64,000 nucleotides of DNA. It comes from a virus. Location: the IMG/VR virus record IMGVR_UViG_3300050821_009430, positions 1 to 64,000 of that record; one strand, 5' to 3'. The notes under the pieces are model-generated. The model saw only the letters and a list, made by a program, of their open reading frames with translations, had not been told where the DNA came from and did no database searches. The position numbers were made by a program, and so were the translations under genes. Shown piece by piece: positions 32,878 through 55,102 of the stretch; positions within the stretch are counted from its first letter, which is position 1, and every line of letters begins with the position of its first letter.

Positions 32878-32900
32878 CTATAGGCCATAGGAGGCAATAC

Positions 32901-33330: not shown

Positions 33331-33933
33331 ATGCAGCCCCACGAAGAACCGGCCCGGCCGCTTGACCTGTCAATACCAGAGGATGGTTCAATACCGGCTT
33401 TTCTGAAACGCCCATTTGAAAACGAAAGTGAGAACGGTGCCATGTGGAACAAGTTGTGGAGTGAACAGCGTAAGGTCTACGCCAGCGACGAAGCCAAGGC
33501 TGCTGCTGAGCCTGAAGCCGAAGCACCGGCCGCAAAGCCCAAACCTGTGAAGGCTGACAAACCGGCCAAAAAGGCAACGGCTAATGGTGCCAGCAAGCCC
33601 AAGGCTGAAGCCAAGGCCAAACCTGCGGCTAAGGCTGCGCCCGCTAAGGCCACTGCAAAGCCTGCCAAGGGCAAAGCCAAGGCTGAGCGTAAACAGGATC
33701 CGGCTAAACTGGACGCCTTTGGCTTCCGCAAAGAGAGCATCAAGTCCAAGGCAGCGGCCCTTTATGCCAAAGGCAAAGGTGCGACGCTGGCAGATGTTAA
33801 GGAAGCGCTTGGCAGCGTGCAATTCAACTTGCTTACGGAACTCAAGGAAAAGGGTTACGAGGTTGAAGAGTCGGAAGTCAAGAACACCAACGGCCGTATG
33901 GTGACCCGTTACAAGATAGTTTCCAAAGATTAA
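33331..33933 (+). CDS. Histone-like (Ala/Lys/Pro-rich) protein with C-terminal wHTH-like domain and N-terminal IPAFLKR peptide
   Basis: KPKPVKADKPAKKA...KPAAKAAPAKA linker; FGFRKESIKSKAAALY..G.GAT...LG...NLL..L..KG domain. The start is 33331 or 33442. Confidence 0.75.
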   Translation: MQPHEEPARPLDLSIPEDGSIPAFLKRPFENESENGAMWNKLWSEQRKVYASDEAKAAAEPEAEAPAAKPKPVKADKPAKKATANGASKPKAEAKAKPAAKAAPAKATAKPAKGKAKAERKQDPAKLDAFGFRKESIKSKAAALYAKGKGATLADVKEALGSVQFNLLTELKEKGYEVEESEVKNTNGRMVTRYKIVSKD

Positions 33934-33957
33934 GTAAGCGTTGCGTCCTGCGTATAG

Positions 33958-33988
33958 GGCCAAGGGCACCCCAGTCCTTGGCCTTTTT
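33958..33988 (+). terminator. Intrinsic terminator
   Basis: GGCCAAGGG-CACCCCAG-TCCTTGGCC-TTTTT. Confidence 0.75.
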
Positions 33989-34014
33989 CAATCCAAACCA
34001 AAAGGAGAAATAAA

Positions 34015-34581
34015 ATGATAGACCTTGCAGCAATTCCCGCTGAACGTCTTGCTATGTTGGACAACGCAAAGCTTTACAACGGTTCGCATGACGGCGGGAC
34101 TGGTGGCCCAGATTGCAAGCATTGTGCCCGTGAATTGCTCTATGAGGTTGTTACTGGTAATCATGCAGATAAAGTGCCGCCCGGATGTTCGGTCATGATT
34201 GGCGTTCTGCCAACATTCAATGATGGCCCTTGGCTCAACGACGATCATCGCACGGAGGTGATGCGTCCCTACCTCAAGAAAATGCTAACCCTTGATCCAG
34301 CAAGGGATGCTGAACGAGTTTTCTATCTGCTCGATCACGTCTACCGAGCCGACCTCCCAACCATCTGCGACCTGTTTAAGGAGGATGAGGCTGCAAAAAA
34401 GTTGCGCGGGTTGGCACCAATCACCAATAACAAATCTGCGCTGCGTGCGCTGGATGCGATGCGTGCGCTGGGTGCGCTGCGTGCGCTGCGTGCGCTGGAT
34501 GCGCTGGGTAAAAAGCAAATCGCCGAAGCGTGGGCCAAGAACTGTACCGACGCCCTCGATCTTATCTGCTCTATTGAATGA
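34015..34581 (+). CDS. Hypothetical protein with an (AL-R/D/G)n tract
   Basis: AAGGAG RBS; GSH...C..E...D.P.C...FND motif. Confidence 0.65.
   Translation: MIDLAAIPAERLAMLDNAKLYNGSHDGGTGGPDCKHCARELLYEVVTGNHADKVPPGCSVMIGVLPTFNDGPWLNDDHRTEVMRPYLKKMLTLDPARDAERVFYLLDHVYRADLPTICDLFKEDEAAKKLRGLAPITNNKSALRALDAMRALGALRALRALDALGKKQIAEAWAKNCTDALDLICSIE
34438..34509 (+). repeat. Eight tandem 9-nt repeats (consensus GCGCTGSRT)
   Basis: gcgctgcgt gcgctggat gcgatgcgt gcgctgggt gcgctgcgt gcgctgcgt gcgctggat gcgctgggt. Confidence 0.9.
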
Positions 34582-34593
34582 TAGGATCAGATC

Positions 34594-35096
34594 ATGATGT
34601 CAAAACCGCTTAACTTTGAAACCGCGCAATCCAGAAACGACTGGATCATTGAGCATGCGGAATATTTCACTACGTGTCGGATGATAAACAGAAAATACAT
34701 CCGCAACGAACATAAAACTCTGGACGAAGCGCGGCGGCATGCCAAAACGATGCTGGCCGAGAACGGCACCAAGCCGGTTCTCATCTACGCGGTACAGGGT
34801 AATTCAGATACCTACATTGAAATGGTCAAGCCCTGATCTCATCCACCCCCAACCAAAGGAACCCAATCATGGCCTACAGAAACGATAAGCCAGAAGTTGT
34901 GACCAAGCTACAACTACAAGGACGAACTAACTCATCTCAACCTTGGGGTATCTATAATACCGTACCACTTGGTCACGAACCGGATGAAAACGAAGGCAAA
35001 GCCTTACGGCGTGCCAAGGCTGAGATTGCCCGGCTTAAGGCCAATTGGCATGATAATTACGATCAAACCATTGAGTTCCGGGTAATTGAGCTATAG
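34594..35096 (+). CDS. Two small hypothetical proteins (34594-34836, 34869-35096)
   Basis: RBS-preceded ORFs in operon orientation. Confidence 0.55.
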
Positions 35097-35435
35097 GCCG
35101 TTGCCCTTATAAGCCACGCTGATGCGGGTTTAGCTGAAAGGGCCACCCACGTAGCCCATGAGCCTGAAGCCTTACCAGCAGTCACCCCAAGCCAGTTATA
35201 CCATGCTTGGCGCTGCGTGCTTCATGGGGTACAGTCATAACCATCAAAGGAGGGCAATCTCCTGCCGCAGCCGCGCGGGGCAACGGGCGAGTGTAGGCCA
35301 CCGGGGTTTTGTCATAGCGGCCCCGGCCAAGCGAGCCACTACAAGTTATCCCTCTGGGCCTTCCTTTGACCGGCGTGGGTCATGACCAGCGAAGGGGTAA
35401 AAGCCCCGCAGTTTCTTTCACAAAAGGAATTAAGG

Positions 35436-35918
35436 ATGATTGAGCATACCGATCCGTTCTATCAGAAAATTGCCAGCACCATTGAACTACACGGTAGACA
35501 GCTACTAGCCATAGGGGCGGGGGCCAAGGAACCGGCATTTGCCTATTCAATAGGAAATCATTTGAAGGGTTTCCCTGAATTGCTTATCATTGGCAACATG
35601 CAGCCTGAAATAGCCCAAAGCATTCTCAATAAATTATCAGATCAAGTAATTGCCGAGAATAAGGCATTCCTCAACGGTGCGCTGGTCAATATTGGGGGCA
35701 AGTTTGATTTGCAGGTGTGGGATACGACCATCATAGCCAAAGTGCAATACACCCTCCAAGCCACTGAGTTCTACCGGCATCAAGAATACGCCGTCCAGCA
35801 AATCATCCTGCCCGATCCAAAAGGGCATTACCCTACCGATAAGCGCTGCCACAAACGCTACCGCGTGCCGGTGCTGCGTAGCACTACAGCCATCATGCAA
35901 TCTCTAAAGATTCACTAG
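35436..35918 (+). CDS. DUF4262-like protein
   Basis: IELHG...PAFAYSIG....GFPELLIIG...ILN...QIILPDPKG.YP. Confidence 0.75.
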   Translation: MIEHTDPFYQKIASTIELHGRQLLAIGAGAKEPAFAYSIGNHLKGFPELLIIGNMQPEIAQSILNKLSDQVIAENKAFLNGALVNIGGKFDLQVWDTTIIAKVQYTLQATEFYRHQEYAVQQIILPDPKGHYPTDKRCHKRYRVPVLRSTTAIMQSLKIH

Positions 35919-36340
35919 GACGTATAGCTTGAAAGCTCGGCTTGTGGTTGGGCGGATCTGCAAACCACAGCGCAAGCCGTGATCTACCGCGTTACTGTGG
36001 GGCCAACAAAGCGCAAACCCCGGTCCACTAATTTGTCCTTTGGGGGTATTGGCAGTGCTCCTGTTATGGCACTGAAAAGAAGCAGGACAGGCTTGGGCAG
36101 TTCAGGTGGCTCAAGTGAACCGGCGAAGCGGCTCCGTTGGGTATAGCTTCGTAGCTTGGTTCGGGGACTACCTTCCAGTATCCAGCTCTAAGGATACCTG
36201 GGGGTAGGCGTAGCTGTCGCTTCGCCTTGGTCCTTCGAACCGGCTCAGCTCTCACATTGGGTATAGAACATATAGTGGACATTAGAACTAGAAATTCTAA
36301 GGAATATTCCAGTAGAACTTCCAACTATAGGAACTATTCT

Positions 36341-37565
36341 ATGGCACGAACTGTCTCAAGTTCTCAGGAACCCAAGAAACTTCCGTACAAATTCTACGGA
36401 GAAGAACAAAATTCCAAGATCAAGCGTCAATATAAACTCAGTGAGCTAAGGAAGCTTCTTGAGAATAAAACCTGGGAACAGGTGATTGATGCCACCATTT
36501 ACGGCCGTGAATTCAGCGGTGTGTATTTTAGCGGGAGGATCGGCAAATTCATGAACCAAATGGCCTTGGCCGTTGTGGCCTTTGACCGCATCGTGGTCAT
36601 GAAGTTCCTGAATTCTAAAATAACACCCTTCACCTTTCACGCTTCTGCCATTCTCAACGGTTCCCACAATGGCGGCTTCCTGCTTTGCAAAGCCGATTTC
36701 ATGAGTAGGCACACGGGCGATATAAAGCTGACCGATTTGGTCGTTTTGGAGGAGAATGATGATAATGCAGCAACACTACCGAATAGATTGTGAATGCAAA
36801 GGGACCGGCCGCATAAAACGATATATTGGTCACCCAGGTAGAATTGCAATTTTTGTTTGCTTTGCGTGCACGGATAATACCACCGATGACAACCCCAACC
36901 CTCAACAAACTGCTGGCGTCATTGCCGAGCTTGAGCAAAGCTGATTTAGCCACGGTATGTGCCGCTGCTGATAGCCTGCTAGGCTTAATAGGGGGCTTAC
37001 CGGCTACGTCAAATAACCCGGCCGCTACCCCCCTATTTGACGCGGTGACGCACGCGCTGGGGCTGCGCCTGGGCTTTGCGGCGTTTCAAGCTACAGCGAC
37101 GTATAAAACCTTTAGACGGGGTGAAGTTGCCGTAAACGATTTTGTTGATGCTGCCTTCCCCGAAGCTTGTGATAAGGTATCACGCAATGCCATCCTGATC
37201 TTTCTGGTTGAATGCCTCATGGATGACCTGAAAGCACGGCATGTTCCATTATCTATCGGGGCATTATGTAATAATCTGGAACGCGCCCCACAGGTGTTCC
37301 GTGATGCCTTCCCCGGCTATGTTGAGAACGGGTTGGCTCACCTCATCTTCAAGTCAATGACAAGGAGAGACTAATGTTTGGCCGGTGGCCCTTAATGCTG
37401 AAAAGCACTCACGAAGCGGTCAGACGAGAAAATTATACGCTTCGTGATGCCCTACGTGAAGCCAATAAAGAACTGCAAAAGCACCGGGCACTGATTGGTG
37501 GTTTGCGTAGCGGGGCAATCGATCTTGCACAAACCCTGACCAAGAAAACAGAAAAAGCACGCTGA
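36341..37565 (+). CDS. Three hypothetical proteins upstream of the helicase (36341-36793, 36886-37374, 37374-37565)
   Basis: Contiguous plus-strand ORFs with no recognisable family. Confidence 0.5.
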
Positions 37566-37567
37566 TT

Positions 37568-38980
37568 GTGCTGTTAGGTGCCCTCCAAGAGAATCTACTT
37601 ACAGTCCTTTCCTGGGATGATGAACGCGCGCCATTGGTCCGCAGTCTCATCGGGCCTGAACTGTACGGGGGGCATTACCGAACCATAGCCCTCAGAATCT
37701 ACGATTACATAGATAAGTACAAGAAGGCCCCCAAGGATCATCTGCCCGATATCCTGATGGATAAGCTTGAGGCAGAAAATGCCCGCGAAGCTGAATTATA
37801 TGAGAGTACTATCTCATCTATTTCAGTTGCGCGTGAAGGGCTTAATATCGAATATGTAATGTCTCAGTTGGAGACATTCATCAAGCGCCAGTCATTGCGT
37901 GGCGTGGCCATTGACTTGGCCAAGGCGCTGCAAAAGGACACCGAAGAATCGCTTGAAGAAGCAGCCACGCTGATTGCACGGGCCAATACCGGCACGCTGT
38001 CAGTGTTTGATCCAGGCATCAGGCTCAGCGACAAGAAAGCCATGAGCTTCCTTGATTTGCAGGAAGCTTCGTTCCCTACCGGAATACCTGAATTGGATAA
38101 GCGCGGCTTCGGCCCTACCCGCAAGGAACTTTGGCTGTTCATAGCGAATACAAAGTCCGGAAAAAGTTGGGGTTTAATGCAGTTAGGAAAGATGGCTGCT
38201 TTGCATCGTTTCAAAGTATGCCATATTTCATTGGAAATGTCACGCGAAAGATGTGCTCAACGCTACTACCAAAGCCTGTTTGCCATTTCAAAACGCAAGG
38301 AAACCTTCAGGAACACCAAGTTTCAGAAAGACAAGTTAGGCAGGATCACTGGTTATGATGATATACGGGTGCAGCCCTCATTGAGTTATGATGATCCTAA
38401 AGTTAGAAAGAAACTTGGCCGACGCATCGACCGCTGGTCTGATCGGCTACTTAAGAATGTCATCATCCGTGACTTTCCAATGGGCACCATGACCGTCAAT
38501 CATTTGCGTGCCTATTTAGATAATCTTGAACAGACCGAACACTTTGTACCGGATCTCCTTATTATTGACTACCCTGATTTAATGAAGCTGGACAAAGATA
38601 ATTACCGCCTGTCAATAGACCAAGCCTACAAGGATATCCGTGGCATAGCAGGCACACGTAACATAGCCGTGGCCGTGGTCAGTCAGTCACACCGGGCCGG
38701 GGCCAAGGCCAAACAATTAGGCGCTGAAAACGTGGCCGAAGCCTACTCAAAGATAGCACATGCCGATACCATCGTTACGTATAGTTCCACGCCACAAGAG
38801 AGAAAACTTGGGCTTGCCCGGTTATATGTGGCAGGTGGCCGTAACGACGAAGATAAAATTAGTGTGGTTATCTCACAACAATACGGCATGGGTGCTTTCG
38901 TCATAGATTCCTCATTGATGATTGGAAACTACTTTGAGAACATCCCCCAAGATGGCTTTAGCGAGGATGAGGATGAATAA
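37568..38980 (+). CDS. Replicative DNA helicase (DnaB/SF4-like)
   Basis: PTGIPELD, ANTKSGKS, SLEMS, LLIIDYPDL, VSQSHR, VAEAYSK...AD, GRND. Confidence 0.88.
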   Translation: MLLGALQENLLTVLSWDDERAPLVRSLIGPELYGGHYRTIALRIYDYIDKYKKAPKDHLPDILMDKLEAENAREAELYESTISSISVAREGLNIEYVMSQLETFIKRQSLRGVAIDLAKALQKDTEESLEEAATLIARANTGTLSVFDPGIRLSDKKAMSFLDLQEASFPTGIPELDKRGFGPTRKELWLFIANTKSGKSWGLMQLGKMAALHRFKVCHISLEMSRERCAQRYYQSLFAISKRKETFRNTKFQKDKLGRITGYDDIRVQPSLSYDDPKVRKKLGRRIDRWSDRLLKNVIIRDFPMGTMTVNHLRAYLDNLEQTEHFVPDLLIIDYPDLMKLDKDNYRLSIDQAYKDIRGIAGTRNIAVAVVSQSHRAGAKAKQLGAENVAEAYSKIAHADTIVTYSSTPQERKLGLARLYVAGGRNDEDKISVVISQQYGMGAFVIDSSLMIGNYFENIPQDGFSEDEDE

Positions 38981-39582
38981 GAACCCAACAGATCCACCAA
39001 CCGGGGCTTTGTATATTGAAGACCATATGAAGGCTAGATGGGTGGTCTATCACGATTCAGGTCTAATTAGGAAAAAGCAAATATCCGACTTTGGAAGTTG
39101 GTGGTGCCCCGAAAAGGCTTGGAGAATAAATAGGCGTGATTATCTGCCCAAAATGGGCTATGCTTTCGAGAATTACTTCCACGCTTATGCCTATTCTTTA
39201 AAGTGCAAGAACAATGAACGCAATCATCCAACCTGAAAGGGCACTCATTGCCGATGTTCTAAAAGAACTGCCGGTAGGTGCTGTACAAACATGGGGGCAA
39301 GTAGAGCTTCTCATTAAAAATTCAGATAATCCAATCTATCTATTTGTTATTGAAATTCAAGGCAATAACCCTATGCTGCAATTCAAACAGCCTAAGATAA
39401 CACTGAAGATGAGCGGCGAAACTCTTATGTACCACACTGGCGAAACTGTGGCCATCAAGAAGTTCTTTAATAGATTATTTCTGCCAACATTCTTTGTTTT
39501 TGATAATTATCTACATGCCTATGCACTTGAACAAAGGTTGGCACCAGCCGGGCATTTGGTGCAGAAGCAAAAATTCAAGTGA
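38933..39582 (+). CDS. Two hypothetical proteins with similar C-terminal motifs (FENYFHAYAY / FDNYLHAYAL)
   Basis: ORFs ending at 39236 and 39582 share F[ED]NYxHAYA; the first start is uncertain. Confidence 0.55.
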
Positions 39583-41138
39583 TCAATAAATATGCCATTA
39601 AGAAATTCCTTGCCAGAAAGCTGGATAATTTTGACTGGGTGAAACAATATAAGAAACAAGAGCTTTCAGCCGAATTGGATCAATTAAAGCCCAAGCCTGA
39701 TTTTGGTAGTATTACGCCTTGGCAACACCAAATGGTGTGTTTCCTGATTATGCTGATGCTCAAGCGTTTCATGCTCACACTTGACATGGGCGCTGGCAAA
39801 ACGGCTCTCGTTTTGATGTTACTCCTTTATAGGAAGCAACAGGGTGAGAAACCGAAGGCTATCGTTTTTGTACCTTATATAACCAGTGTGCTGACCTGGA
39901 TTGAGCAAGTTGAAGAGCACGCCCCGCAATTACGCTGCGTGGCTTTACTCGGTACAACCGAAAAAAATTTAGCAGCACTGAAAACCGATGGTGACCTGTT
40001 TGTGATCTGTTACCAAAGTGCCGTTGCCATGGTCACGGAAAAGGTTTTCAATAAAAAGAAAAACAAGAACCAATGGCAGTTGACGGCAGCCGAAGTACGG
40101 AAGTACTTCGATGGTTTTGACATGCTCGTATGTGATGAAGTGCACAATTGCCGGTCAGTTTCAAGCCTCACTTACCGCATGTGCCGGGCCATTTCAGCCC
40201 AGTGTGAATGGGCTTTTGGCCTTACCGGCACACCCTTTGGCAGTGACGTGGCAGCCCTGTGGCCCCAATATTACTTGATTGATTTTGGTGAAACGCTTGG
40301 CCCCACACTTGAGTTTTTCAAGGCTGTATTCTTCAAGCAGGGTTTCAACTATTGGGGGGGCTACGAATTCACATTCAAAAAGAAGTTATTACCTGACTTA
40401 AGAAGGATGTTGAAGAACCGATCAATTCATTATGCCATTGATGAATTGCACGATATGCCCCAGAAAATAGATACAATTAAGACCATGCCGCCACCGCCAG
40501 ATAGCGAAGGCTATTGCAAGGCAGCGCTTCAGCAAATCAACGAGGCCATCAAGGGCAAAGGCAAGACAGCCTACCACGTTGTAGAAAATAATTACCTCAA
40601 GCTCCGTCAATTATCATCCGGTTTCATGACTTTACGTGGCGAAGATAATGATAAAATACAGGTTAAGTTTGAAGAAAGCCCCAAACTTGAAGCATTGATT
40701 GACTTGATTGAGAGTATGCCCGAGGGGGCAAAGATGGTGGTGTTTCACCACTTTGTTTACACTAACCAGCTAATCAGCGATGAATTGAAGAAACTGAAGA
40801 TAGGCCATGCCCGTGTATGGGGCAAAGCCCGTGATCCTATTGGTCAGTTGCGGAAGTTCAAAGCCGACGCTAATTGTAGGGTACTGGTTATCAATGTGCG
40901 GTCCGGTTCAAGTTCACTGAACTTGCAGATCGCTAACTATGTGGTGTTCTTTGAGCAGCCAGATAACCCCATTGATAGGCAACAGGCTGAACGCCGCGTA
41001 TGGCGGCCGGGCCAACTCAAGCGTGTCTTTATTTATGATCTTTTGGTCAAAGCTACCAAAGATCATGCCCTTTATAACAGCAACAAAGCTGGGGAAGACC
41101 TACTCAAGTCAATAATTTCTGGTCACACCAAGTTGTAG
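39579..41138 (+). CDS. SNF2-family helicase/ATPase
   Basis: PWQHQ, DMGAGKT, DEVH, LTGTP, KLRQLSSGF, SLNLQ, QAERRVWRPGQ. Confidence 0.9.
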   Translation: MINKYAIKKFLARKLDNFDWVKQYKKQELSAELDQLKPKPDFGSITPWQHQMVCFLIMLMLKRFMLTLDMGAGKTALVLMLLLYRKQQGEKPKAIVFVPYITSVLTWIEQVEEHAPQLRCVALLGTTEKNLAALKTDGDLFVICYQSAVAMVTEKVFNKKKNKNQWQLTAAEVRKYFDGFDMLVCDEVHNCRSVSSLTYRMCRAISAQCEWAFGLTGTPFGSDVAALWPQYYLIDFGETLGPTLEFFKAVFFKQGFNYWGGYEFTFKKKLLPDLRRMLKNRSIHYAIDELHDMPQKIDTIKTMPPPPDSEGYCKAALQQINEAIKGKGKTAYHVVENNYLKLRQLSSGFMTLRGEDNDKIQVKFEESPKLEALIDLIESMPEGAKMVVFHHFVYTNQLISDELKKLKIGHARVWGKARDPIGQLRKFKADANCRVLVINVRSGSSSLNLQIANYVVFFEQPDNPIDRQQAERRVWRPGQLKRVFIYDLLVKATKDHALYNSNKAGEDLLKSIISGHTKL

Positions 41139-41148
41139 GATGGATTAG

Positions 41149-41664
41149 ATGATACCTTCCTTAATCAAACCAGCTACCAGAAATACCCCGTGGCCTGAAG
41201 AACAAACAGAAAAACTGAGGAACCTTGTACTTGATCCCAATATGACTGCTTCAAAGATAGCAATAGAGCTGGGCGATGGCCTTACGCGGCATGCGGTCAT
41301 AGGCAAAATTCACAGATTAGGCTTACAAAATAATATATGGGGAAAGGGGCAAAAAAACGGAAGGCCAAGAAAGACAAATCACAGGGGGCAATCTGCGCAA
41401 AGCAAACAGACGGCCCTTTATTTCACCAAGCGAAAACGCTTAAGAGTGCTTTTAGTTGAGCCGGCATCCTCACAATTTCCAAATGTTGAGCCTTCCGCCT
41501 TTGATAATGCAATCCCACAAGAACAACGCAAAACACTTATGCAGTTGAACGGTCACACTTGCCGGTGGCCTGTTGGTTACCCAGGCGAACCAAATTTTTT
41601 CTTTTGTGGGGCATTAACTGATACCACCTATTGTGATTATCACACTACCCGATCAATTAGATAA
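41149..41664 (+). CDS. gcrA: GcrA-family cell-cycle regulator
   Basis: W..E..EKL...TASKIA.ELG..LTRHAVIGKIHRLGL N-domain; L..L....CRWPVG.P....FFFCG......YC..H C-domain. Confidence 0.9.
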   Translation: MIPSLIKPATRNTPWPEEQTEKLRNLVLDPNMTASKIAIELGDGLTRHAVIGKIHRLGLQNNIWGKGQKNGRPRKTNHRGQSAQSKQTALYFTKRKRLRVLLVEPASSQFPNVEPSAFDNAIPQEQRKTLMQLNGHTCRWPVGYPGEPNFFFCGALTDTTYCDYHTTRSIR

Positions 41665-45294: not shown

Positions 45295-48200
45295 CGGACG
45301 GTATGCTGACATGGCTCGATGCGAAGCAAAACTCTCGAAGGACTATCTTCGGTCGTGTCGTGACCGGCCAGAAATCGATGGTCAATGTCGGCGTGTTGCG
45401 ATGTGGTTGATCGACGGCAAGAAGGTCTGCGGAGAGCACGCATCGCTTATCTTGCTTGAGCACGCGAAGCGCGCGGGCGTTATTGAGCCTGTAGAGGTCG
45501 CCCCAGGGGAGCGGGAATACCGCCAAACTGTTGCGGAATAAGCGGGAGAAAATTATGGCGAATGGAGCAAAGATCATTCAAGGGTTGAAGCAAGCCGTAG
45601 CTGGCAATTTTGTCCGCGTTACGGTCGAAGGCCAAACCTGGGTGCGGCTGCCAGATCGCGACGCGAGCGCCGACAACTATCCATCACAGTTTGCAATGGA
45701 GGGGGCTGTCGAGCTTGAGGTCTATAATGCTCTTGGTCGCGTGCAGACGCAGACCATAGGCAAGGTTATTCAGCGCGCCATCGACAAAGCTCTGAACGCT
45801 AAAGCTACTGCGCCATGACTGCGAAGGGAAATAAGGTGCTCAATTTTGTCTGGCCCGAGAAAAGCTATCAGTCGCTTGATCGCGGCATCCGCTTCGCAGT
45901 GCGCGTTTTACATGCGGCTGGGTTTGAGACGTGTCAGTCGTGCCAAGGAGGCAAAGGACACGCCTACGATCAACCTACTGTCGATCTGAGGGCCGAAGCC
46001 GACGACGCTCGTGGCTTTGGGGCACTCGCCGCGCTGCGAACTTATGGCCTGCCGATTGCAGAGGTCGCAATCGTTTGGCCCGTGCGCAATGGCTATCCCT
46101 ACGAAAAGCTGTGGCGCATCACATTCAATAAAACGATGGAAGATCGCGCAGACGAAAAGCCCATTTTCGTTTTTGGCTACATGGCGACTTAACGCGCTAA
46201 CGCGGCATAAGCTTGGAGAGATCGACGTGCCTTGGTTTCCAGATAGCGAGAGCGGTGCCTTCGCCGACGTGGTCGAGGACCATGTTGCTATTGGAGATCA
46301 AGTCAAACGCTTCGGCGGAACGAGCAAATATAGGAGTGGCCGAGTGACTGGGTTTTGCCCCAACGGCGAGGTCCGCGTTGACGTTGGCGGAGGCCAAGGT
46401 CGTATTTGGCCACGAGATCAAACGAGAGTCTACTATGGCACCACGGAAAGCATTCCGGCACAGACCTCAGAGCCCACGCAGCCATCCCCGACGATAGAGG
46501 CCACTGAAATTGAAGTTGTATCGCACGTCACTTGGACGCCAGAGGGTGCCGCAAAAAGACCGCGATGGCGCAAGGTAGGTCGCGCCGGAGTCGTGGAGAA
46601 GTTTTTCTATTGGAACGATTCACCGACGACAGTCCGCGTCAATTTTCCGCACGACTTCGATATCTGCTTTATCTATGACCTAAAACTTGTACGTTGATGG
46701 GGAGATAGCGCAAATGACCTTAAAACTTACAAATACGCCTGCCGGTGTCGTGATCCGAGAGATATCGGCCAGCGGAGAATGCGCCTATCGCGTCACGCCG
46801 TTGGGTGAATGGCACTATTGCGGCGATCACAAAGGACCATGGCTCTGCATTTCTGCTGACAAGGTGCCCGCGCGCGTTCGGGATGCGTTAGCCAAATTTG
46901 ACACCGCGAACGGATTAGCGGTCGCTTAAATTCGATTACGCTAAACAGGAGTGACCGATGTCAAACTGCGAACTCTGCGGCGAACCGATGCCGGAAGGCG
47001 AAGAAATGTTCAAATACCACGGCTACAGTGGGCCATGCCCAAAGCCGCCATTGGAAAAGGTCCGCGCCGGGGTTAGCGGCATTGTTCCTCAAGGACCGAC
47101 TTTCCACTGGAAAGATGGTTGGTTCTTTTGCCGAGGCGAAGGGTTGGCCGTTCATATCTGGAACACGGAGCACGGCGCCGAACTGATAATCCCGCGCGGC
47201 GAATGGGATTCAATAGTCGGCCATCTTTCCCATCCCGATACGCCGCGCTGAGCATCCGAAAGCAAGGACTGCCATGAACATCGTTCATCCGATCCACGAT
47301 ACCAATGTCACGAAGATCAGGCGCGCACTGGTAGCAGCCCTTCCCGTCGTCAAGGACGACATCAGGTCCATAATTGAGGGGCACTGTCATCCCGAGACAA
47401 CACGGCGCCCAGGATCGATCCAATCTATAACCGGACACTGGTTCAACGAGGATACGATCGATCAAGAGGTTCTTAAAGAGCTTAAGAAACTTCGCTCAAT
47501 TGAAGCCAAGATCGTCGCTGCGGTCGAGATACTGAATTTTTGATCGCAGTGAGCGTCAGTGAATGCGAGGGACGATGAGCCAAAGATCAATGCTTGAATT
47601 TAACCACGACTATTGCCCGTCTGCCGGCGATGAGGCGGCTTTCGTTCACGCACTTGTTAGTTATTTACGCTCTGGTGACCCAGGACAGTTGCCGCGCGGC
47701 GTCACGTGGTTTGGCCGCCGCCATCATTCCGATGAATGCTCTCTTGGTGAACCGCCGCTCGGATGGGACAATTTAGGGAAGCGGGCGGCCACGTCATGAG
47801 ACTACGCAAACTCCTTTGTTGGTGGAGAGGCTTTCATACCTGGAAGCACCGCCGTAATCATGCCAAGCGGGATTGCACCTGCTGCGGCCGAGAAGAATGG
47901 TTATTTAGCGGAGAGTGGGGCGGCAATCCCCAATGGAAACAAATGCGCCGTACTTGGGCAATTCGCTAGCGTGTCGTCACGGAACAGACAAATGACTGAG
48001 GATTGGCGAACATTCGAGTGCATGGAGTGCGGCGACATTGAGGATATCGACGTTTCGGAAATGACCGCTGTAACCATATACCCATGCAAATGCTGCGGCT
48101 ATCCTCTCGAATGTATTGACGGCGTAATCGAGTTTGCAGATCAGTAGTCACAAAAATGAAACAGCAGCCGACATTCACCTATCAGATTTGGCAAGATGGC

Positions 48201-49982
48201 ATGATGGTTGCCAGCGCCACATCGACCGACAAGGCCACCGCCAAACGCGAAGGACTGCGCTATCTCCACCAGTACGCCCAGGACGGCTCCGCAACGATAC
48301 GCGGCCCCGATGTGGATATGACGGTCGAACATTCACGCTGACATCACACAAATGAACCTCACCGCGCTCAAAAATCAATGCGAACTCTCTGGTGGGTGCC
48401 GGTCGCCGCTGTATCAATGTGGCCGCTGTCCGTTCCGGGCGGGAGTCGCTTGGCGAGCGTCCGAGCTTGAGCGCGTGCTGCGGATGGGATTGCAGTTGGG
48501 AGAGAGCGGCGGCCACGGCTCAGGAAACAAGTGCCCCACATGCCACTTTGTCCGTGAGGCGCGTAAGGCTCTCGGTAATATCAAAGGAGAAAACTAAAAT
48601 GGCTGAAATCGAACGCGGGGAGTTGCTGAACAGTCTAATGCCGTTTGCGCTCTACTATGAGAACAAGATCAAGAACACGATGGCTCAATTGCCTGGAAAC
48701 ACTCCGCTATTTGATGGCGCGTTCACTATTGATGATTTTCTCGGGCCCTGGATGATAATGCACAATGACGACCAGGGCGCTCCTGTCTTTGATGCAGTCG
48801 TTAAAGATCAAGCGCGGTGACGATGACAAACCGAGGACAGAATGGCTGACACTTTAGCTAGTTTGATTGGCGGCGCATGGCTGATCTTCATGATCGTGGC
48901 CGTTGTGATGGCGATCTGCCGGGGATGTGGGTCATGCTGAGAGCCGAAGTCATCTGGCGCGCTAGACTGGCATGGGACGCCATAGCCGCGATCGGCTGCA
49001 TCCTGTCAGTCATAGCAGCCTTCGCAATCTTCGCGCCCTGTGCCGTCCTGTGGCTCGCTGTACCACCATGGAGAACGTCATGAACAGAGCTCAACTTATT
49101 GAATGGCTGCGTGGGTGCACCCATGGACGCCCAACGGCTTCCGGCTTTCCGAGCCAAGATGGTGCTCCGTTTCAGGAGGCGGCGCACATGCTTGATCGGG
49201 ATGGTGGGGCGCTGCAAATGGCGCTCGATGACCTTGAGCGCGTGGCCGGCGATGATGATGACTTCTCGGACACGATCCAGGTAATCAATTCGGCGCTCGG
49301 TTGTGAGCAGAAAGCGGACTCCAAATGATGAGATTTGTAATCGAAACATGGCCGATCTGGATGTGGATTGGTTTAAGCGGCCTCGCCATTCTCGCCACAA
49401 TTTCACGCATGTAAGTGATGAGTTTGGAGGTATTTATGACAACAAAAATAACAATCGATAGTACCTCTTATGCTGGAGAGGATGATGAGTTTGTGTTGCT
49501 CATTAGCCTTTCCGGTTTTGCTGACAAGGGACAGGTCGTGCGGATGCAAGACCATATTCATCATTTTTTTCTTGAACGGTTTTCTGGCAAAGATATTGAG
49601 CGCGCTCCTGGACAACAAGTAGATTCAAAATGAAACTTGCCTGTGTGCTATTGGGCTTCGCTTGTCTCCGCGATCCAGCAATGGAAACACCATTCAATCC
49701 GCCGTCATGGCCTTGGCCCGGTGAATGGGCCGTCGAATATAATGGACAGACAAGTGCGCCTGCTCCGTTTGGAGAGGCCATCAAGATATTCATTCCAGCC
49801 TGCCAGCCCTTCAAGGTCGTCGGTTATGTATCAGGAGAGAACTGGTTTATGTTCCGTACCCAACGAGAAGCGGGCACTGATGATATTATGATTTTGACGC
49901 TTGGTGACCCAAACAAAGAATCTTTGGTGCCGCCCGTTAAACCATGTTCAGCACCAGTTTCGTGATAGATGAGTAGTAAACA

Positions 49983-50936
49983 ATGGATTGGCCTTCTTTC
50001 CTAACAACACACAATATCGATTATATAACTGCCGGGCCAAATACAAGGAAAGGAGAAATATCCATTAGATGCCCGTGGTGTGGTGATGACGACCCATCTG
50101 AACATTTATCAATTTCATTAAGCAAAGATGCTTTTGGATGTTGGAGAAACACTAAACATGCCGGTTACAAGCCCACTCGTTTGATAGCTGCTCTATTGGG
50201 GTGCTCTTTCAGTCATGCACAAAACATTGTGCAGCAATATAGTGCCCCCGACGCAGGTGCTTTTGATGATGCCATGGCAATGCTACAAGCCACGGCTAAG
50301 CCACCACAGCGGCCCAATGCTTTAGTAGGGGGGCTACCTAGTGCATTTAGGCAAATCAAGCCAGCGGGCCTTACAGGCCGCTTTTGGCACTACCTATTGC
50401 AGCGGGGCTTTGATGATGTTCTTGCATTAATTACCGAATACAAACTTTTGTGCTGCCAAACCGGCCGTTGGAAAGATAGGATAATACTACCGCTGTACCA
50501 GAAACAATCACTAATCGGGTGGACTGGGCGTGCCATTCAGCCCACCACCAAAGCCCCGCGCTACTTAAGCTCTTCAGAAGCAATTAAGCATACTATCTTC
50601 AATGAAGACCATTTAACTGATGGGGGCAAAACTCTTTACATAACCGAAGGGCCATTTGATGCTCTGAAAATAGATTTCTACGGCAAAAAATTTGGGTCAC
50701 AAGCCACTTGTCTTTTTGGTGTCAACCCTACAATTAGTCAGATAGCCATCTTACATACTATTCTGTCCAGTTTTGAGAAGGTTGTAATTCTATTTGATGC
50801 AGAAGCATTTGAAGCGGCTCTTTCATTACACGATTCACTCTCTGTAAAAAATGTAACTATTGGAAGCCTACCTACCGGGGTTAAAGATCCCGGTGAACTC
50901 TGCCCCCCTCAGGTAGAGCAATTCCTTAAAACTTAA
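49983..50936 (+). CDS. DNA primase (Zn finger plus TOPRIM)
   Basis: CPWC...H...CW, YL..RGF, RIILP, GWTGR, ITEGPFDA, FDAE, KDPGE. Confidence 0.88.
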   Translation: MDWPSFLTTHNIDYITAGPNTRKGEISIRCPWCGDDDPSEHLSISLSKDAFGCWRNTKHAGYKPTRLIAALLGCSFSHAQNIVQQYSAPDAGAFDDAMAMLQATAKPPQRPNALVGGLPSAFRQIKPAGLTGRFWHYLLQRGFDDVLALITEYKLLCCQTGRWKDRIILPLYQKQSLIGWTGRAIQPTTKAPRYLSSSEAIKHTIFNEDHLTDGGKTLYITEGPFDALKIDFYGKKFGSQATCLFGVNPTISQIAILHTILSSFEKVVILFDAEAFEAALSLHDSLSVKNVTIGSLPTGVKDPGELCPPQVEQFLKT

Positions 50937-51009
50937 TTTTTCTTATTGTATCCTGACCTGACTGCATTGTAGCATTCTTGGGACTACTCGAATTTAAGGG
51001 TGGGGTGAC

Positions 51010-51552
51010 ATGCGGCATGAGCGCATAGCAACAGTGTGGGAGCCAGAGTGGGAAGGGGCAATCAAAAATTGGGCAACTTCCTTTATCAAAAAACAACAAT
51101 GGCGCTGCGATAAAATTTACGAATTTGAGGACCTTCTACAAGAAGCCTACGTTCTTTTTCTAAAGCTGGCAGCGCGTTACCCCAGAGTAGTTGAACCGGC
51201 CCATTTCATGGCCTTGTTCAAAACATCACTGAGTAATTTCATCCATGACAAATCAATTTACCTCCAACGAAAAAAAGAATGTCATGTCGACGTTGGAGTT
51301 GATATATCGGACTTTTGTATTAGTCATATCGGTGAGACTACCAATGCCGGGCTGACCATGCTCTTGCTTAACGAAGCACCGCAAGAACTGCGTTTGGCAT
51401 TGGCGTTAGTAACCGATGATCCAGCCTCTTTGGGGGCACCTATTAACCCCAGAAAACCCCGTGAGAACTTGAATATGAAGTTGAGACGTATTCTTGGTCT
51501 TGAGAACACTTTTGATTTCAAAGCAGCACTTATCGATCTGCTACTCAACTAA
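51010..51552 (+). CDS. Sigma-factor-like protein (sigma70 region-2-like)
   Basis: EFEDLLQEAYVLFLK....Y......F..LF...L.N resembles region 2; region 4 is not clear. Confidence 0.55.
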   Translation: MRHERIATVWEPEWEGAIKNWATSFIKKQQWRCDKIYEFEDLLQEAYVLFLKLAARYPRVVEPAHFMALFKTSLSNFIHDKSIYLQRKKECHVDVGVDISDFCISHIGETTNAGLTMLLLNEAPQELRLALALVTDDPASLGAPINPRKPRENLNMKLRRILGLENTFDFKAALIDLLLN

Positions 51553-51564
51553 GGAGCATCCCGA

Positions 51565-52188
51565 ATGCCGAATGATATAGAAAACGAATTGATCGAAGCC
51601 ACTAAGTTCAGGACACCCCCAGGGGGCTATTCAGCGCGCCAAGATCATTTGGGTGGCTTAGCACGGGCTGCCAATAAACTCACCGACGATCAATTTGACG
51701 AGCTGACCGATGATGCAGCAAATTGGGTTTCTTCTGCAATCAAAGCATTAAATGGCAAAGCTGAGATACCAGAATTTGACGATTACAAAGCTGCTGAAGA
51801 AGCTGGAAGTGAGATTGAGGAAGAAGGGGCTGAGACTAAAACAGCACGATCAAAAACTCCTAAAAAGAAGGATGCCCAAGAAGTCATAGCCAAGCCTTCT
51901 AAACTCAAGCCTTCAGGCAAGAAACAAAAAGTATCTGAAACCCGTTATGACAACTTGACGGGAGAACGCAACCGCTATGGGATCATTGTAGGAACTAAAA
52001 CCCACGAAGCTATCTTACTCTATGAAGAAGGCATCACATCCGCCGGTATCAAAGAGAAGCTTGGTGGCAGATTCTACAACATCCTTAAAACACTTGAAGA
52101 AAAAGGCCACCGCGTAGAACGGTTGCCGGGTGGGGTTTTCAAGCTAACTCATGCTGAAGATATAGGGACTAAAAAGGGTAAGAAATGA
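51565..52188 (+). CDS. Putative DNA-binding protein with C-terminal wHTH-like domain
   Basis: Charged linker, then YGIIVGTKTHEAILLYEEGIT...KEKLGG..YNILKTLEEKG, similar to the 33331 protein. Confidence 0.6.
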   Translation: MPNDIENELIEATKFRTPPGGYSARQDHLGGLARAANKLTDDQFDELTDDAANWVSSAIKALNGKAEIPEFDDYKAAEEAGSEIEEEGAETKTARSKTPKKKDAQEVIAKPSKLKPSGKKQKVSETRYDNLTGERNRYGIIVGTKTHEAILLYEEGITSAGIKEKLGGRFYNILKTLEEKGHRVERLPGGVFKLTHAEDIGTKKGKK

Positions 52189-52442
52189 ACCGGAATCCAA
52201 AGGAGCTTGCCAAACGAATATTGGAAATAGAAGCCGTTTATTCCAATGACATCCAATTCAGCTTAACTAATCTTGGGTTACGGCTAACATTTGGCGAAAC
52301 ATCGCTCATTCAGGATGAGCCACCAACTCATCGAATCGCGGTGTTCATCCCAGCCCCTATTATTGAACCGTTCATGACTGGGCTTAAAAACGTCATGGAA
52401 CAACACGCTCAGAATAATGCTCCGCCAGAAAAAACCAACTGA
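52185..52442 (+). CDS. DUF3467-like small protein
   Basis: VYSN.......L.LTFG.......V.IP motif. Confidence 0.55.
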   Translation: MNRNPKELAKRILEIEAVYSNDIQFSLTNLGLRLTFGETSLIQDEPPTHRIAVFIPAPIIEPFMTGLKNVMEQHAQNNAPPEKTN

Positions 52443-53353
52443 TGCTCTACCGTACCAAAAGTGGTACCAGGACGCTTTACCGTAGCCGCCCGCTATTGCT
52501 TACCCCGCAGCAAGCCTACACACGCCCCAGCCCCGGCAAAGCATGGTTTGCCACTACAACCAGCGTGTGGCGTGTTGATGAAATCATTAAGCGAAGTGTA
52601 CGTGACTGGCGCAGGCTGACTGGGGAAACTGGCCACACTGGCGAACGTGCTGAAACGATGCGAGCCGATCATGAGAGTGTGTATACCGGCACGCACAGCG
52701 TATTCGCTGCCCCATTGGTAGAATGGATTTTACTTCGATACGGCGGCGAACCGGGTGGGCATATACTTGATGCCTTTGCCGGTGGCCCACCACGGGCGTT
52801 AGTTTCAACCATTATGGGCTATCGGTATACTGGGTTTGAGATACGCCAGTCACAAATTGATGAAAATAAGAACACATTGAAGCAATTGGGCCTTACCGAG
52901 TGCAACTATATCCTTGCAGATGGCCGGTATCTTGCCGATGATATTGGTCCTTTCGATGTTGCACTAACATGCCCGCCTTATTACGATCTCGAAGTTTACA
53001 GTGATCTTGAGAATGATCTCAGTAATTTGGCTACCTATGGGCAGTTCAATTTTGGGATGTACTCTTGTGCATTAGCTCACGCCAAGGTGATGAAGCCTGG
53101 GGCTTTTGTTTGTATTGTTGTTGGAAATTTCAGAGATAAAAAAGGTGAATTAGTAGATTTCAGAGCACACACTGTTGAGAATTTCCAAGAAGTTGGATTT
53201 GTGTTTTGGCAAGATGTGATCTTGGTTAAAAACACTGGGAGTGCCACGATCAGATCCACTAACGCATGGCGTGGGAAAAAACTCGTCCCGATACATGAAC
53301 ATTTACTTGTCTTCAGACAACCAGAAAACAAAAAGGTTGAAGCAGATGAATAG
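52442..53353 (+). CDS. DNA amino-methyltransferase (N6-A or N4-C)
   Basis: SVF.APL.E, ILDAFAGG (motif I), GFEIR, TCPPYYDLEVYS (motif IV), HE.LLVF. Confidence 0.85.
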   Translation: MLYRTKSGTRTLYRSRPLLLTPQQAYTRPSPGKAWFATTTSVWRVDEIIKRSVRDWRRLTGETGHTGERAETMRADHESVYTGTHSVFAAPLVEWILLRYGGEPGGHILDAFAGGPPRALVSTIMGYRYTGFEIRQSQIDENKNTLKQLGLTECNYILADGRYLADDIGPFDVALTCPPYYDLEVYSDLENDLSNLATYGQFNFGMYSCALAHAKVMKPGAFVCIVVGNFRDKKGELVDFRAHTVENFQEVGFVFWQDVILVKNTGSATIRSTNAWRGKKLVPIHEHLLVFRQPENKKVEADE

Positions 53354-54389
53354 AGCTGAATTAACAGCAAAGCTGGAACTGGTCAGCTATGCCTTGGCCG
53401 ATCATAATTTGGTCCCTCTATTTCAGTGTTTCTGCTTTGATACAAAAACTGTCAATTGCTATAACGATACACTCGGGGTTATTGCCCCCTGTGAGATTAA
53501 TGATGCTTTTGCGGTCAATGGCACCACCTTGCTTGGGCTACTGAAAAACAGCCACAGTGAAGAAGTTGAGTTTTCAATCGAGGACAAACACGATATTGTC
53601 ATAAAAACCGGCAAGAGCCGTTTCAAATTGCCTTACTTTCCTAAGGAAGATTTCCTCTTCAAAAAGCCAGCCAACAAGTGGACTATCACACTGACTATAG
53701 ACGAAAACTTATTGAAGGGCTTGGAAGCCTGCCTATTGACTTCATCGCGTGATATGGCTCAACCAAAATTGCTTGGCGTTAGCCTTGGATCCTATTCTAA
53801 AAAGGTAGCTTTGTATTCCTGTGATGGGGACGCACTCACTCGTCATCTTACAAATACCAAAGCCGTAGAAAATTTATCTTATTTGATGCCCAATATGTTC
53901 TGCGAAGCCTTGGTTCGTATTTGCAAGGAATCCAAGATCGATGCCGGGCAACTGAATATTAATTCTGAATGGACCCACGCAGAACTAGATAACGGTTATC
54001 AAATCTACGGCCGTTTGATTGAAGTTGATGCCCCAGTAGATTACGAACAATTGATCACCAAAACCGTCAAAGGTGAGGTTAGCTTCCTGCCGTTGCCAAA
54101 AGGGTTGGATCATGCCCTATCACGCGCCCGCGTGATTGCTGATCCTGACAGTGCCAAAACCGTATTTGAGATAACAAGTGAGAAGCTTCGTCTAATAACC
54201 GAAACCCACATGGGCATTGTCAGAGATGTGATGCCTTACCCTAAACATGAGGATATTAGCGCCAATGCTTCGGCCGCCATGGTGCAACGGGCTATTGGGC
54301 TTTGTGACGAAATGGCCATTCTTGAACGCTGCACGGTATATAGACAGGGCACTACCCTGTTCATGGTTGTGAGCAATATGGGTGAATAA
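53346..54389 (+). CDS. DNA polymerase sliding clamp (beta/DnaN-like)
   Basis: About 347 aa, three-domain pattern, MNRAEL...L, IKTGKSRFKLP, SCDG, GRLIE...DY; replication context. Confidence 0.7.
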   Translation: MNRAELTAKLELVSYALADHNLVPLFQCFCFDTKTVNCYNDTLGVIAPCEINDAFAVNGTTLLGLLKNSHSEEVEFSIEDKHDIVIKTGKSRFKLPYFPKEDFLFKKPANKWTITLTIDENLLKGLEACLLTSSRDMAQPKLLGVSLGSYSKKVALYSCDGDALTRHLTNTKAVENLSYLMPNMFCEALVRICKESKIDAGQLNINSEWTHAELDNGYQIYGRLIEVDAPVDYEQLITKTVKGEVSFLPLPKGLDHALSRARVIADPDSAKTVFEITSEKLRLITETHMGIVRDVMPYPKHEDISANASAAMVQRAIGLCDEMAILERCTVYRQGTTLFMVVSNMGE

Positions 54390-54822
54390 AATGGATAGTG
54401 AAATAGAGCGATTACGGACCCGCGTTGCAGAATTGGAATTTCATATTTCTGAGATGGTGAAAGAATTACAACGAGTTGCTGAATCTTGGCCCCTGCGGCT
54501 TCCCCCAACATATGCATTGGTTTTAAGCGTTTTTCTTAAGCACCCAAAAATGGTTTTGACCAAAGAATTCTTATGGCGAAATATTTACGCTGCCCGTATT
54601 GGCCACGAAGATGAATGGCCTGATCCAAAAATTATTGATGTTTTTATCTGTAAACTTCGGCCAATCATTAAACGCTATGATATCTATATAGAAACAATTT
54701 GGGGTAGGGGCTGGCGTATAGATGAAGTCAACCACACCAAATTAGTGGCATTGAGTAACGTGCCATTCGGCACGTCACCTGAAGCCTTTACTCAAGCTAA
54801 TGCAGCAGGATGCGCTCAATAG
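54382..54822 (+). CDS. CtrA-like OmpR-type DNA-binding domain with an N-terminal coiled coil and no receiver domain
   Basis: LTKE.L...IY....DEWPDPKIIDVFICKLR......IETIWGRGW closely matches the CtrA C-terminal pattern (EPELKIIDVFICKLRKKL...IETVWGRGY). Confidence 0.8.
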   Translation: MNKMDSEIERLRTRVAELEFHISEMVKELQRVAESWPLRLPPTYALVLSVFLKHPKMVLTKEFLWRNIYAARIGHEDEWPDPKIIDVFICKLRPIIKRYDIYIETIWGRGWRIDEVNHTKLVALSNVPFGTSPEAFTQANAAGCAQ

Positions 54823-55100
54823 ATCAAATCATAGCTGCCGTAGAAGCAGCCGCCCGTGTCCCTCAAGGCTCAACCCGCGATACATCATGCCGGGTCTATG
54901 AGATCAGCCTTGCACGTCATATTGCCTGTTACATTGCCAGAAAAGAAACACATCTATCGTTCAAAAGAATAGCCACAGCTTTTGGCACCGACGATCATAA
55001 GATTGGCCTTTATGCCTTCAATAAAATTTCGATAGCCCTGCTTAATAGGGACCCTCATGTAATTCGAGTAGTGAATGAAGCTTCAAGCCCGGTGGCTTGA
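54810..55100 (+). CDS. Stand-alone DnaA domain IV-like HTH protein
   Basis: IDQII..V...ARHIACYIARKETHLSF..IA..FG.DDH.....A..KI matches the DnaA C-terminal pattern. Confidence 0.75.
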   Translation: MRSIDQIIAAVEAAARVPQGSTRDTSCRVYEISLARHIACYIARKETHLSFKRIATAFGTDDHKIGLYAFNKISIALLNRDPHVIRVVNEASSPVA

Positions 55101-55102
55101 AG

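Follow-up and report, generated by a model that had tools for sequence, protein, structure and literature searches.

GcrA acts as a cofactor of sigma70 (PMC4647560), and the Caulobacter phage phiCbK encodes a GcrA homologue, gp222, which was proposed to change the replicative state of the host (PMC3556154). In the roseophage RDJL Phi 1, Hynes et al. and Fogg described a homologue of GafA, the activator of a gene transfer agent (GTA), followed by a CtrA open reading frame (ORF) without receiver and then by a homologue of rcc01866 (PMC5026251, PMC6363796). The annotation of this GafA homologue comprises a bacterial DnaA domain and a helix-turn-helix (HTH), and its pairing with the CtrA domain was described in the context of GTA and late-gene activation (PMC5026251, PMC6363796). 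GafY of Caulobacter, the DnaA-like HTH half of GafA, activates transcription by binding to domains 3-4 of sigma70 (PMC11150451). Here, we analyzed the first 64 kb (the window; all positions refer to it unless a locus is named) of the 78,457-bp IMG/VR virus record IMGVR_UViG_3300050821_009430, a linear record with an estimated completeness of 84%, in which a GcrA homologue, a CtrA-type DNA-binding domain without receiver and a free-standing DnaA domain IV (DnaA-IV) are encoded together. An earlier note on this DNA had proposed that these genes, a methyltransferase, a sigma-like factor and a peptide resembling the tail of FtsZ form one coordinated system directed at the host cell cycle; it had rightly added that phage homologues of GcrA or CtrA are already known (GcrA in phiCbK, CtrA in RDJL Phi 1).

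We consider it somewhat probable that these three genes encode accessory small regulators of host-regulator ancestry that steer the host sigma70 RNA polymerase, and that they are independent add-ons and not parts of one interlocked circuit. The three genes are:

41149..41664, plus strand: homologue of GcrA in full length, with DNA-binding (N-terminal) and sigma70-interacting (C-terminal) domains (PF07750, E 3.7e-28, model positions 3-142)
54382..54822, plus strand: CtrA-type winged helix without receiver, preceded by an N-terminal heptad-repeat (putative coiled-coil) segment, 146 aa (PF00486, Trans_reg_C, E 3.4e-9, residues 38-112)
54810..55100, plus strand: free-standing DnaA domain IV-type HTH with an altered signature, 96 aa (PF08299, Bac_DnaA_C, E 2e-12)

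The GcrA gene begins 11 nt past the stop codon of an SNF2-family helicase gene, and the same SNF2-GcrA order was found in the related loci L087 and L091. The Pfam match covers both domains, in agreement with the earlier call of a full GcrA, and both align to Caulobacter GcrA structures (7ye1, E 7.8e-16; 5yiu for the DNA-binding domain; 5yix for the sigma-interacting domain). The signature of the family, CxWPxG...FCG...YC..H, is present, with its conserved Cys, Gly and His columns visible in the alignment of homologues. The NCBIfam equivalog model for GcrA gave 78 bits against a cut-off of 280, and by that measure the protein is not an ortholog of cellular GcrA. Because this score lies so far under the cut-off, the protein reads as a diverged phage homologue of GcrA. 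When window GcrA alone was used in the related-locus search, no close relative was returned.

For the winged helix of the second protein, CtrA was the top NCBIfam model (2.5e-9; next model 7e-6). The alignment with bona fide CtrA proteins showed no variation in the motifs of recognition helix and wing (DPKIIDVFICKLR and IETIWGRG), and the CtrA-specific pattern KI[IV]DVFICKxR ... TIWGRG is found in the window protein. The shorter pattern [VI]DVFICKxR matched more than 600 genomic stretches, and the best 80 loci are alphaproteobacterial by title, with few exceptions. No match to the receiver family PF00072 was detected in the 146 residues. By its sequence, the protein is a CtrA-type DNA-binding domain and not a CtrA response regulator. 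The earlier note had proposed that a coiled coil replaces the receiver. The missing receiver and the domain type were supported by Pfam and NCBIfam; heptad repeats do occupy residues 1-35, but the coiled coil itself stays putative. In an alignment of 24 receiver-less homologues, L11 was invariant and L18 nearly so, a pair of leucines spaced seven residues apart. The window domain is 40% identical to gp37, the 'CtrA' of RDJL Phi 1, whose relatives were found in RDJL3/6, the Rhodobacter RcSalem cluster, Paracoccus phage vB_PmaS-R3 and Rhizobium phage RHph_X2_30. Among isolated phages, 26 carry the CtrA domain, all of them alphaproteobacterial; by pattern search, CtrA-like domains were detected in at least 80 contigs of IMG/VR, for the most part in ORFs of 115-180 aa that share the heptad N-terminus. 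In Roseobacter phage RDJL3 (L082, 4758-5597), a protein annotated as 'CzcR-like response regulator' joins a GafA-type segment (DUF6456) to a winged helix of the CtrA type and an HTH resembling sigma-r4.

The CtrA-domain gene overlaps the DnaA-IV gene by 13 nt, and the latter overlaps the start of the polymerase gene. DnaA-IV scored 47.4 bits with Bac_DnaA_C (Pfam gathering score 31.5), with all 69 model positions covered, so the claim of a free DnaA domain IV overlapping the CtrA-type gene was borne out by a full-length match. Domains I-III of DnaA, including the AAA+ ATPase, are absent, and the 96-aa protein is domain IV alone. As the earlier note had stated, two regulators are stripped of their input domains, the CtrA type of its receiver and the DnaA type of domains I-III. 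DnaA-IV was aligned to domain IV of Mycobacterium tuberculosis DnaA and of another DnaA. Its D-D-H-K-I-G-L-Y stretch aligns to the R-D-H-T-T-V-x-H signature of DnaA but departs from it: D and H are conserved, but K takes the place of T and Y that of the final H, so that two of the four aligned signature residues differ. These positions are presumably the base-contacting ones, judging from E. coli DnaA. Identity to the DnaA proteins of three alphaproteobacteria was only 29-31%. A word-based search of 5.8 billion proteins gave no word-sharing homologue, and tblastn against isolated phages gave three weak matches only, to two Enterococcus phage records and to one unclassified record from human faeces. 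As a DnaA counterpart, the protein holds up in its fold, but not in a host-like signature or identity; it is a distant member of the family with an altered signature. Competition for the DnaA boxes of oriC is doubtful because of the altered signature, the low identity to DnaA and the lack of a word-sharing homologue. A provirus ORF of 177 aa (L120, 573-1106; G008) seems to consist of two tandem DnaA-IV-like HTH repeats; it sits between two genes that each encode a GcrA N-terminal domain.

Two further genes had been assigned to the same system:

51010..51552, plus strand: putative divergent sigma factor of the extracytoplasmic function (ECF) type, a lineage core gene (profile against SigE in the PDB, E 0.0065; AlphaFold2 (AF2) model)
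52442..53353, plus strand: orphan amino-methyltransferase (PF01555, N6_N4_Mtase, E 9.7e-11, partial; phrog_12517 over the full length, 2e-52; phrog_498)

The sigma-like ORF had no Pfam match, and Sigma70_r2 was detected in just four of 74 relatives. A profile built from the 74 sequences matched the ECF factor SigE across regions 2 to 4, with the E value listed above, and the family comprises more than 1000 representative homologues. The alignment-based AF2 model reached a predicted local distance difference test score (pLDDT) of 92.6. Sigma factors made up nearly all of its top structural matches (Foldseek, VIA), with middling Z scores of up to 7.4, and the sigma-2 domain superposed with 3.0 A over 76 residues; the ESM Atlas score to Sigma70_r2 clusters was 0.96. 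The profile and structure matches favor a divergent ECF-like type, in line with the sigma-like factor proposed at this position.

In the methyltransferase, the S-adenosylmethionine (SAM) motif ILDAFAGG (around residue 108) lies ahead of the catalytic CPPY (around residue 177). The enzyme resembles CcrM, the GANTC N6-adenine methyltransferase of Alphaproteobacteria, in its amino-methyltransferase type, its catalytic xPPY motif and its PF01555 match, but the order of its motifs is the opposite of that in CcrM and the beta class, where motif IV (DPPY) is N-terminal to the SAM motif. No CcrM-type NCBIfam model matched. The label 'orphan' is fair, as no nuclease gene is adjacent. The family profiles cover the protein only from about residue 51 on, and the ~50 residues ahead of it (52442-52600) look non-coding; the real start may lie further downstream.

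The sigma-like protein served as a handle to collect a lineage set of 24 viral contigs, which were compared by synteny and by hidden Markov model (HMM) surveys of whole records. The sigma-like gene was syntenic in 24 related contigs, and the gene order common to the lineage is DnaB, SNF2, primase, sigma, ORF, methyltransferase, clamp, a slot, family A polymerase (PolA) and clamp loader. Identities of 57-79% to the methyltransferase were found in L086-L092 and L098, whether or not these relatives have GcrA. Both this gene and the sigma factor gene persist throughout the closer clade and belong to its backbone.

In contrast to this backbone, the slot between clamp and PolA varies between the contigs of the lineage. 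In this phage it holds the CtrA domain and DnaA-IV; in L091, a CtrA domain of 138 aa; in L087, a truncated 91-aa remnant of a CtrA domain without the recognition helix; in L088 and L086, a DnaA-IV-like gene; and in L090, L092 and L098, unrelated ORFs. The whole-record HMM survey found GcrA in G051, G052, G053 and G055, and weak remnants of it in G054 and G062. The CtrA domain (Trans_reg_C) was present in G052, truncated in G051 and present as a diverged copy in G053, and Bac_DnaA_C was detected in G053 and G054. All three regulator genes are accessory, and each of them occurs without the others in some close relative. Such independence in related phages is the very outcome that the earlier note had named as speaking against a coordinated system.

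Outside the lineage, 50 IMG/VR records with a CtrA-like domain were surveyed. GcrA was matched in 20 of them (15 over the cut-off), Bac_DnaA_C in 10 (five over the cut-off), a PF01555 methyltransferase in 16 and the sigma family in none. Methyltransferases are common in phages. GcrA adjoins a CtrA or CtrA-domain gene in L010, L017, L028 and L037, and adjoins DnaA-IV in G004. The (pro)viral contigs L010 (7120-8855) and L017 (3-1168) encode a full-length CtrA with receiver next to GcrA, and L028 (9980-10859) and L037 (9176-9937) a CtrA domain alone next to GcrA. To our knowledge, a GcrA-CtrA gene neighborhood is not typical of bacterial chromosomes. Apparent GcrA-CtrA fusions in L010, L028 and L035-37 were ruled out by frame analysis and are adjacent genes instead. 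Among isolated phages, tblastn with window GcrA matched phiCbK-like phages and two Synechococcus phages, and none of the 26 isolated CtrA-domain phages was among the matches at E <= 1e-3. The three domain types are loosely associated, in that they tend to occur in phages of the same kind. The co-occurrence looked for across phages was seen in this sense, but the association is not a tight one.

We searched the phage DNA for the target sites of these regulators. Perfect CtrA boxes (TTAA-N7-TTAA) were absent from the 64-kb window, where 1.1 were expected. The whole 78-kb record contained none either, and 19 sites with one mismatch against 33 +/- 7 expected. The CtrA half-site TTAACCAT was not found in the phage. 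Canonical DnaA boxes occurred at chance level, without enrichment, and a search for repeated intergenic words returned nothing convincing.

GANTC, the CcrM site, is depleted in the window (80 sites vs 201 +/- 14 expected; 0.57 of the Markov expectation) and is not concentrated between genes. Palindromes of 6 bp are scarce too: ACCGGT occurs twice (28 expected), CCCGGG once (25 expected), CCGCGG not at all (21 expected) and TGATCA 13 times (44 expected). Because many 6-bp palindromes are depleted as well, the depletion of GANTC may simply reflect avoidance of restriction sites.

A different picture was obtained with G055, a complete genome of 102.6 kb that lacks the CtrA domain. Five perfect CtrA boxes lie within a stretch of 490 bp inside an ORF-free gap of 1.4 kb (C1:97375-97862; locus L208, 3376-3863), and four of the five read TTAA-N6-GTTAA or its reverse complement. 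By analogy with phiCbK-type phages, this gap resembles a regulatory region under the control of CtrA. A homologue of the window ORF 32159-33010 is encoded about 1 kb away from the cluster; the intergenic region next to that ORF in the window (33011-33255) has no CtrA box. In G051, two CtrA boxes lie within 235 bp. CtrA signaling clearly matters to the lineage: some members carry the boxes and presumably listen to host CtrA, and others carry the protein. A phage that listens to host CtrA has been proposed in the lytic-deferment model (PMC9437464).

Our preferred reading of the three regulators is as follows. The lineage core consists of the replisome, the ECF-like sigma factor, the non-CcrM amino-methyltransferase and an Ala/Lys/Pro-rich protein of winged-helix-like type. 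To this core, the phage would have added GcrA, the CtrA domain and DnaA-IV, whose folds come from global regulators of Alphaproteobacteria. The GcrA homologue is predicted to bind region 2 of host sigma70 and to act as a promoter cofactor. The CtrA domain would dimerize via its heptad N-terminus and then bind TTAA-N7-TTAA without the CckA-ChpT phosphorelay or receiver-dependent proteolysis, as a constitutive CtrA surrogate. It is likely a phosphorylation-independent surrogate. DnaA-IV may recognize specific sequences through its HTH and, in the manner of the DnaA-like N-terminal domain of GafA/GafY, act as an activator contacting sigma70; we do not infer that it competes for DnaA boxes at oriC. 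All three would be at work in the early phase of infection, ahead of the takeover by the phage sigma factor.

The targets of the CtrA domain are tentatively assigned to host CtrA boxes. This assignment is favored over phage promoters, which are possible targets in which we place less trust, because the available phage DNA is devoid of CtrA boxes, and together with the host-type helix this lack tilts the domain towards the host. Interplay with the CtrA/GcrA biology of the host is plausible on the same grounds, a recognition helix identical to the host type and 78 kb without a box, and because the box-rich relative lacks the CtrA domain.

Several observations weigh against this reading. The CtrA-like domains of G052 and G053, both close relatives, have recognition helices that deviate from the CtrA consensus; such drift would not be expected with conserved host boxes as the common target. 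As the record is 84% complete, a cluster of CtrA boxes could lie in the missing 16%. The position of the CtrA domain and DnaA-IV between clamp and polymerase fits a role in replication as well. DnaA-IV has no detectable similarity to gp38, the GafA homologue beside gp37 in RDJL Phi 1 (BLASTP E > 5), and DUF6456 (PF20057), which gp38 combines with an N-terminal HTH, was not found in the 78-kb record. A homology of DnaA-IV to GafA/GafY was accordingly rejected as having no sequence support. The analogy to GafY is functional only because of these two results, and it is plausible that DnaA-IV is a functional analogue of GafA/GafY and not a member of that family.

It is rather unlikely that the CtrA domain, DnaA-IV and the ECF-like sigma factor are a phage-directed switch that activates the phage's own structural and lysis genes, an ancestral form of the CtrA-to-GafA control of GTAs without any host target. 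RDJL Phi 1, with its consecutive GafA-like, CtrA-domain and rcc01866-like genes (PMC5026251, PMC6363796), and RDJL3, which fuses DUF6456, CtrA domain and HTH, would fit such a switch. So would the box clusters of G055 and G051 (five in 490 bp and two in 235 bp), and helix drift among relatives is expected if the phage sites co-evolve. However, 78 kb without a perfect box, with near-boxes below expectation and 33011-33255 included, and the lack of a repeated intergenic motif argue against it, and genes that are accessory in the lineage are not its essential switch. A phage-directed role nevertheless stays alive because 16% of the genome is missing and the helix has drifted in G052 and G053.

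A further proposal concerns the following gene:

33331..33933, plus strand: 200-aa protein with an N-terminal FtsZ-tail-like motif, an Ala/Lys/Pro-rich linker and a C-terminal DUF3489/winged-helix-like domain (translation)

The motif IPAFLKR is encoded at 33391-33411 and forms residues 21-27 of the protein, which starts with the ATG at 33331. FtsZ tails fetched from five alphaproteobacteria end in EIPAFLRRQAN (three: Roseobacter, Ruegeria and Aminobacter), LDIPAFMRRPS (one) and DLPRFLHRQ (one), and the phage motif fits the core of the FtsZ peptide, [DE]-[IL]-P-x-F-[LM]-[RK]-[RK]. At the level of sequence, the match to the tail core is real because the fetched tails end in the same core. It is kept in the three closest homologues (DGSIPAFLRR in G052, DEGIPDFLRR in G051 and DGSIPAFLKR in P0015), where the pattern [DE]GIP[AD]FL[KR]R holds within an otherwise variable N-terminus. 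The more distant homologues in G053 and G055 lack the motif and retain the Ala/Lys/Pro-rich linker and the C-terminal domain. Six-frame translations of 83 other loci (2.78 million residues) contained no further match to a relaxed pattern, and the word-based search with the N-terminus returned only one homologue. The 200-aa protein has no Pfam match. A C-terminal fold like DUF3489 or a winged helix is a lead only (DUF3489 clusters 0.83; template modeling (TM) score 0.70 by query and 0.65 by target).

The C-terminal peptide of FtsZ is a docking site for FtsA, ZipA, MinC, SlmA and ZapD, and its IPAFL[KR]R core in Roseobacter, Ruegeria and Aminobacter is identical to the phage motif. Unlike the FtsZ tail, the phage motif is N-terminal and is carried on a DNA-binding-like protein. 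The resemblance to the FtsZ tail that the earlier note had seen thus stands for the tail core, but not for the C-terminal position. Free FtsZ tail fragments inhibit the growth of E. coli (PMC10769210); a phage mimic of the FtsZ tail that blocks division was not described in the literature searched. It is unlikely that the protein is a true FtsZ-peptide mimic that occupies FtsA or other tail partners and stops division, or tethers phage or host DNA to the division machinery, and that the clade, with a constitutively dimeric CtrA surrogate and a GcrA cofactor alongside, resets the host cell cycle in this way.

An integrated takeover of the cell cycle, as envisaged in the earlier note, is improbable. 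In such a takeover, the CtrA domain and DnaA-IV would silence the host origin, GcrA and the methyltransferase would lock S-phase transcription and the FtsZ-tail motif would block division. All parts are indeed found in one genome, a host-type CtrA helix is present in a phage without CtrA boxes, and the strong depletion of GANTC suggests a CcrM-bearing host. The FtsZ-tail motif is conserved in the closest homologues, and the trio of GcrA, CtrA domain and DnaA-IV recurs in other phages. However, the methyltransferase does not fit as a CcrM counterpart: it has the reversed motif order and no CcrM-type match, and it is a lineage core gene independent of GcrA. The sigma factor is likewise unrelated to the circuit, as a core gene that never co-occurred with the CtrA domain in the 50 surveyed records. 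The altered signature of DnaA-IV and its ~30% identity to alphaproteobacterial DnaA do not fit either, and the parts are independent of each other in relatives. Furthermore, control of replication by CtrA is restricted to some orders of the Alphaproteobacteria. The domain calls were right, but a 'counterpart of nearly every node' acting as a coordinated system was not supported.

The regulator genes lie inside a long plus-strand block that codes for a full replisome, as assigned by Pfam and PHROG profile searches:

37568..38980, plus strand: DnaB-like replicative helicase, conserved in lineage relatives (PF03796, E 1.2e-12)
39579..41138, plus strand: SNF2-family helicase (PF00176 and PF00271)
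49983..50936, plus strand: DNA primase (phrog_47, E 9e-31)
53241..54389, plus strand: DnaN-like sliding clamp (phrog_947, E 8e-27; PF00712)
55097..57808, plus strand: fusion of uracil-DNA glycosylase (UDG), exonuclease and family A DNA polymerase (PF00476, E 1.5e-54; PF03167; PF01612)
57872..58822, plus strand: AAA+ subunit of the clamp loader (PF13177, E 3.9e-18)

That DnaA-IV, the CtrA domain or both mark or regulate the phage origin is very improbable: translational coupling inside the replisome operon, the lack of any other initiator recognized in the window by profile searches and the DnaA-IV-like genes in the same slot of L086 and L088 would agree with it, but this slot is a variable hotspot with unrelated genes in L090, L092 and L098, several close relatives lack both genes, so that neither is the initiator of the lineage, and no cluster of iterons or DnaA boxes was found.

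Genes for SbcC-like and RecA-like proteins follow the clamp loader. An integrase was not found among the window ORFs tested, and megablast of 40-56 kb gave no DNA-level match among isolated phages. We read the region as a block of early/middle genes for replication and regulation in an alphaproteobacterial phage that is probably lytic. The annotated start of the clamp ORF overlaps the methyltransferase gene by 112 nt, and the true start is probably downstream of 53353. In the closest relative (L087, 15656-19672), the polymerase ORF comprises 1338 aa vs 903 aa here, which suggests an insert such as an intein or a homing-endonuclease domain. Upstream in the window (29212-32184), a MoxR-like AAA+ ATPase is followed by a small ORF (30601-30960) and a DUF2201 metallopeptidase/von Willebrand factor A (VWA) protein.

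DNA-binding modules of the GcrA, CtrA and DnaA-IV types have been picked up repeatedly by alphaproteobacterial phages and gene transfer agents. Deciding between rewiring of the host and a role at phage promoters would explain how such phages deal with the changes in replication competence and surface receptors that their hosts undergo over the cell cycle, and the same question bears on the origin of the CtrA/GafA control of GTAs. If the proposals made above are true, nature would have supplied two useful tools: a CtrA that needs no phosphorylation, in the CtrA domain, and a peptide inhibitor, in the FtsZ-tail motif.

Compared with the systems described so far, the pairing of a CtrA domain with a DnaA-like HTH and the presence of GcrA in a phage are already known. 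What appears to be new, judging from the sequences compared, is the joint and recurrent occurrence of the GcrA, CtrA and DnaA-IV types, the heptad repeats in place of the receiver and the FtsZ-tail motif. GafA of Rhodobacter capsulatus and GafY-GafZ of Caulobacter are small DnaA-DNA-binding-domain-like HTH and sigma-like proteins of phage origin that recruit sigma70 RNA polymerase and are wired to CtrA (PMC6363796, PMC11150451). GafZ is of the single-HTH type, whereas the sigma-like protein of the window would be a two-domain ECF type from a large phage family. Like phiCbK with gp222, the phage encodes a full-length protein of the GcrA family, and the two are 29% identical over 91% of the protein; phiCbK belongs to a different phage lineage, and window GcrA, in contrast, is accompanied by the CtrA domain and DnaA-IV. 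RDJL Phi 1 shares with the window a receiver-less CtrA-type winged helix in an alphaproteobacterial phage that is paired with a small DnaA-like HTH protein. Here, however, the partner is a bona fide 96-aa Bac_DnaA_C domain without DUF6456, the pair is embedded in a replisome operon, a heptad N-terminus precedes the winged helix, and a GcrA gene is present as well.

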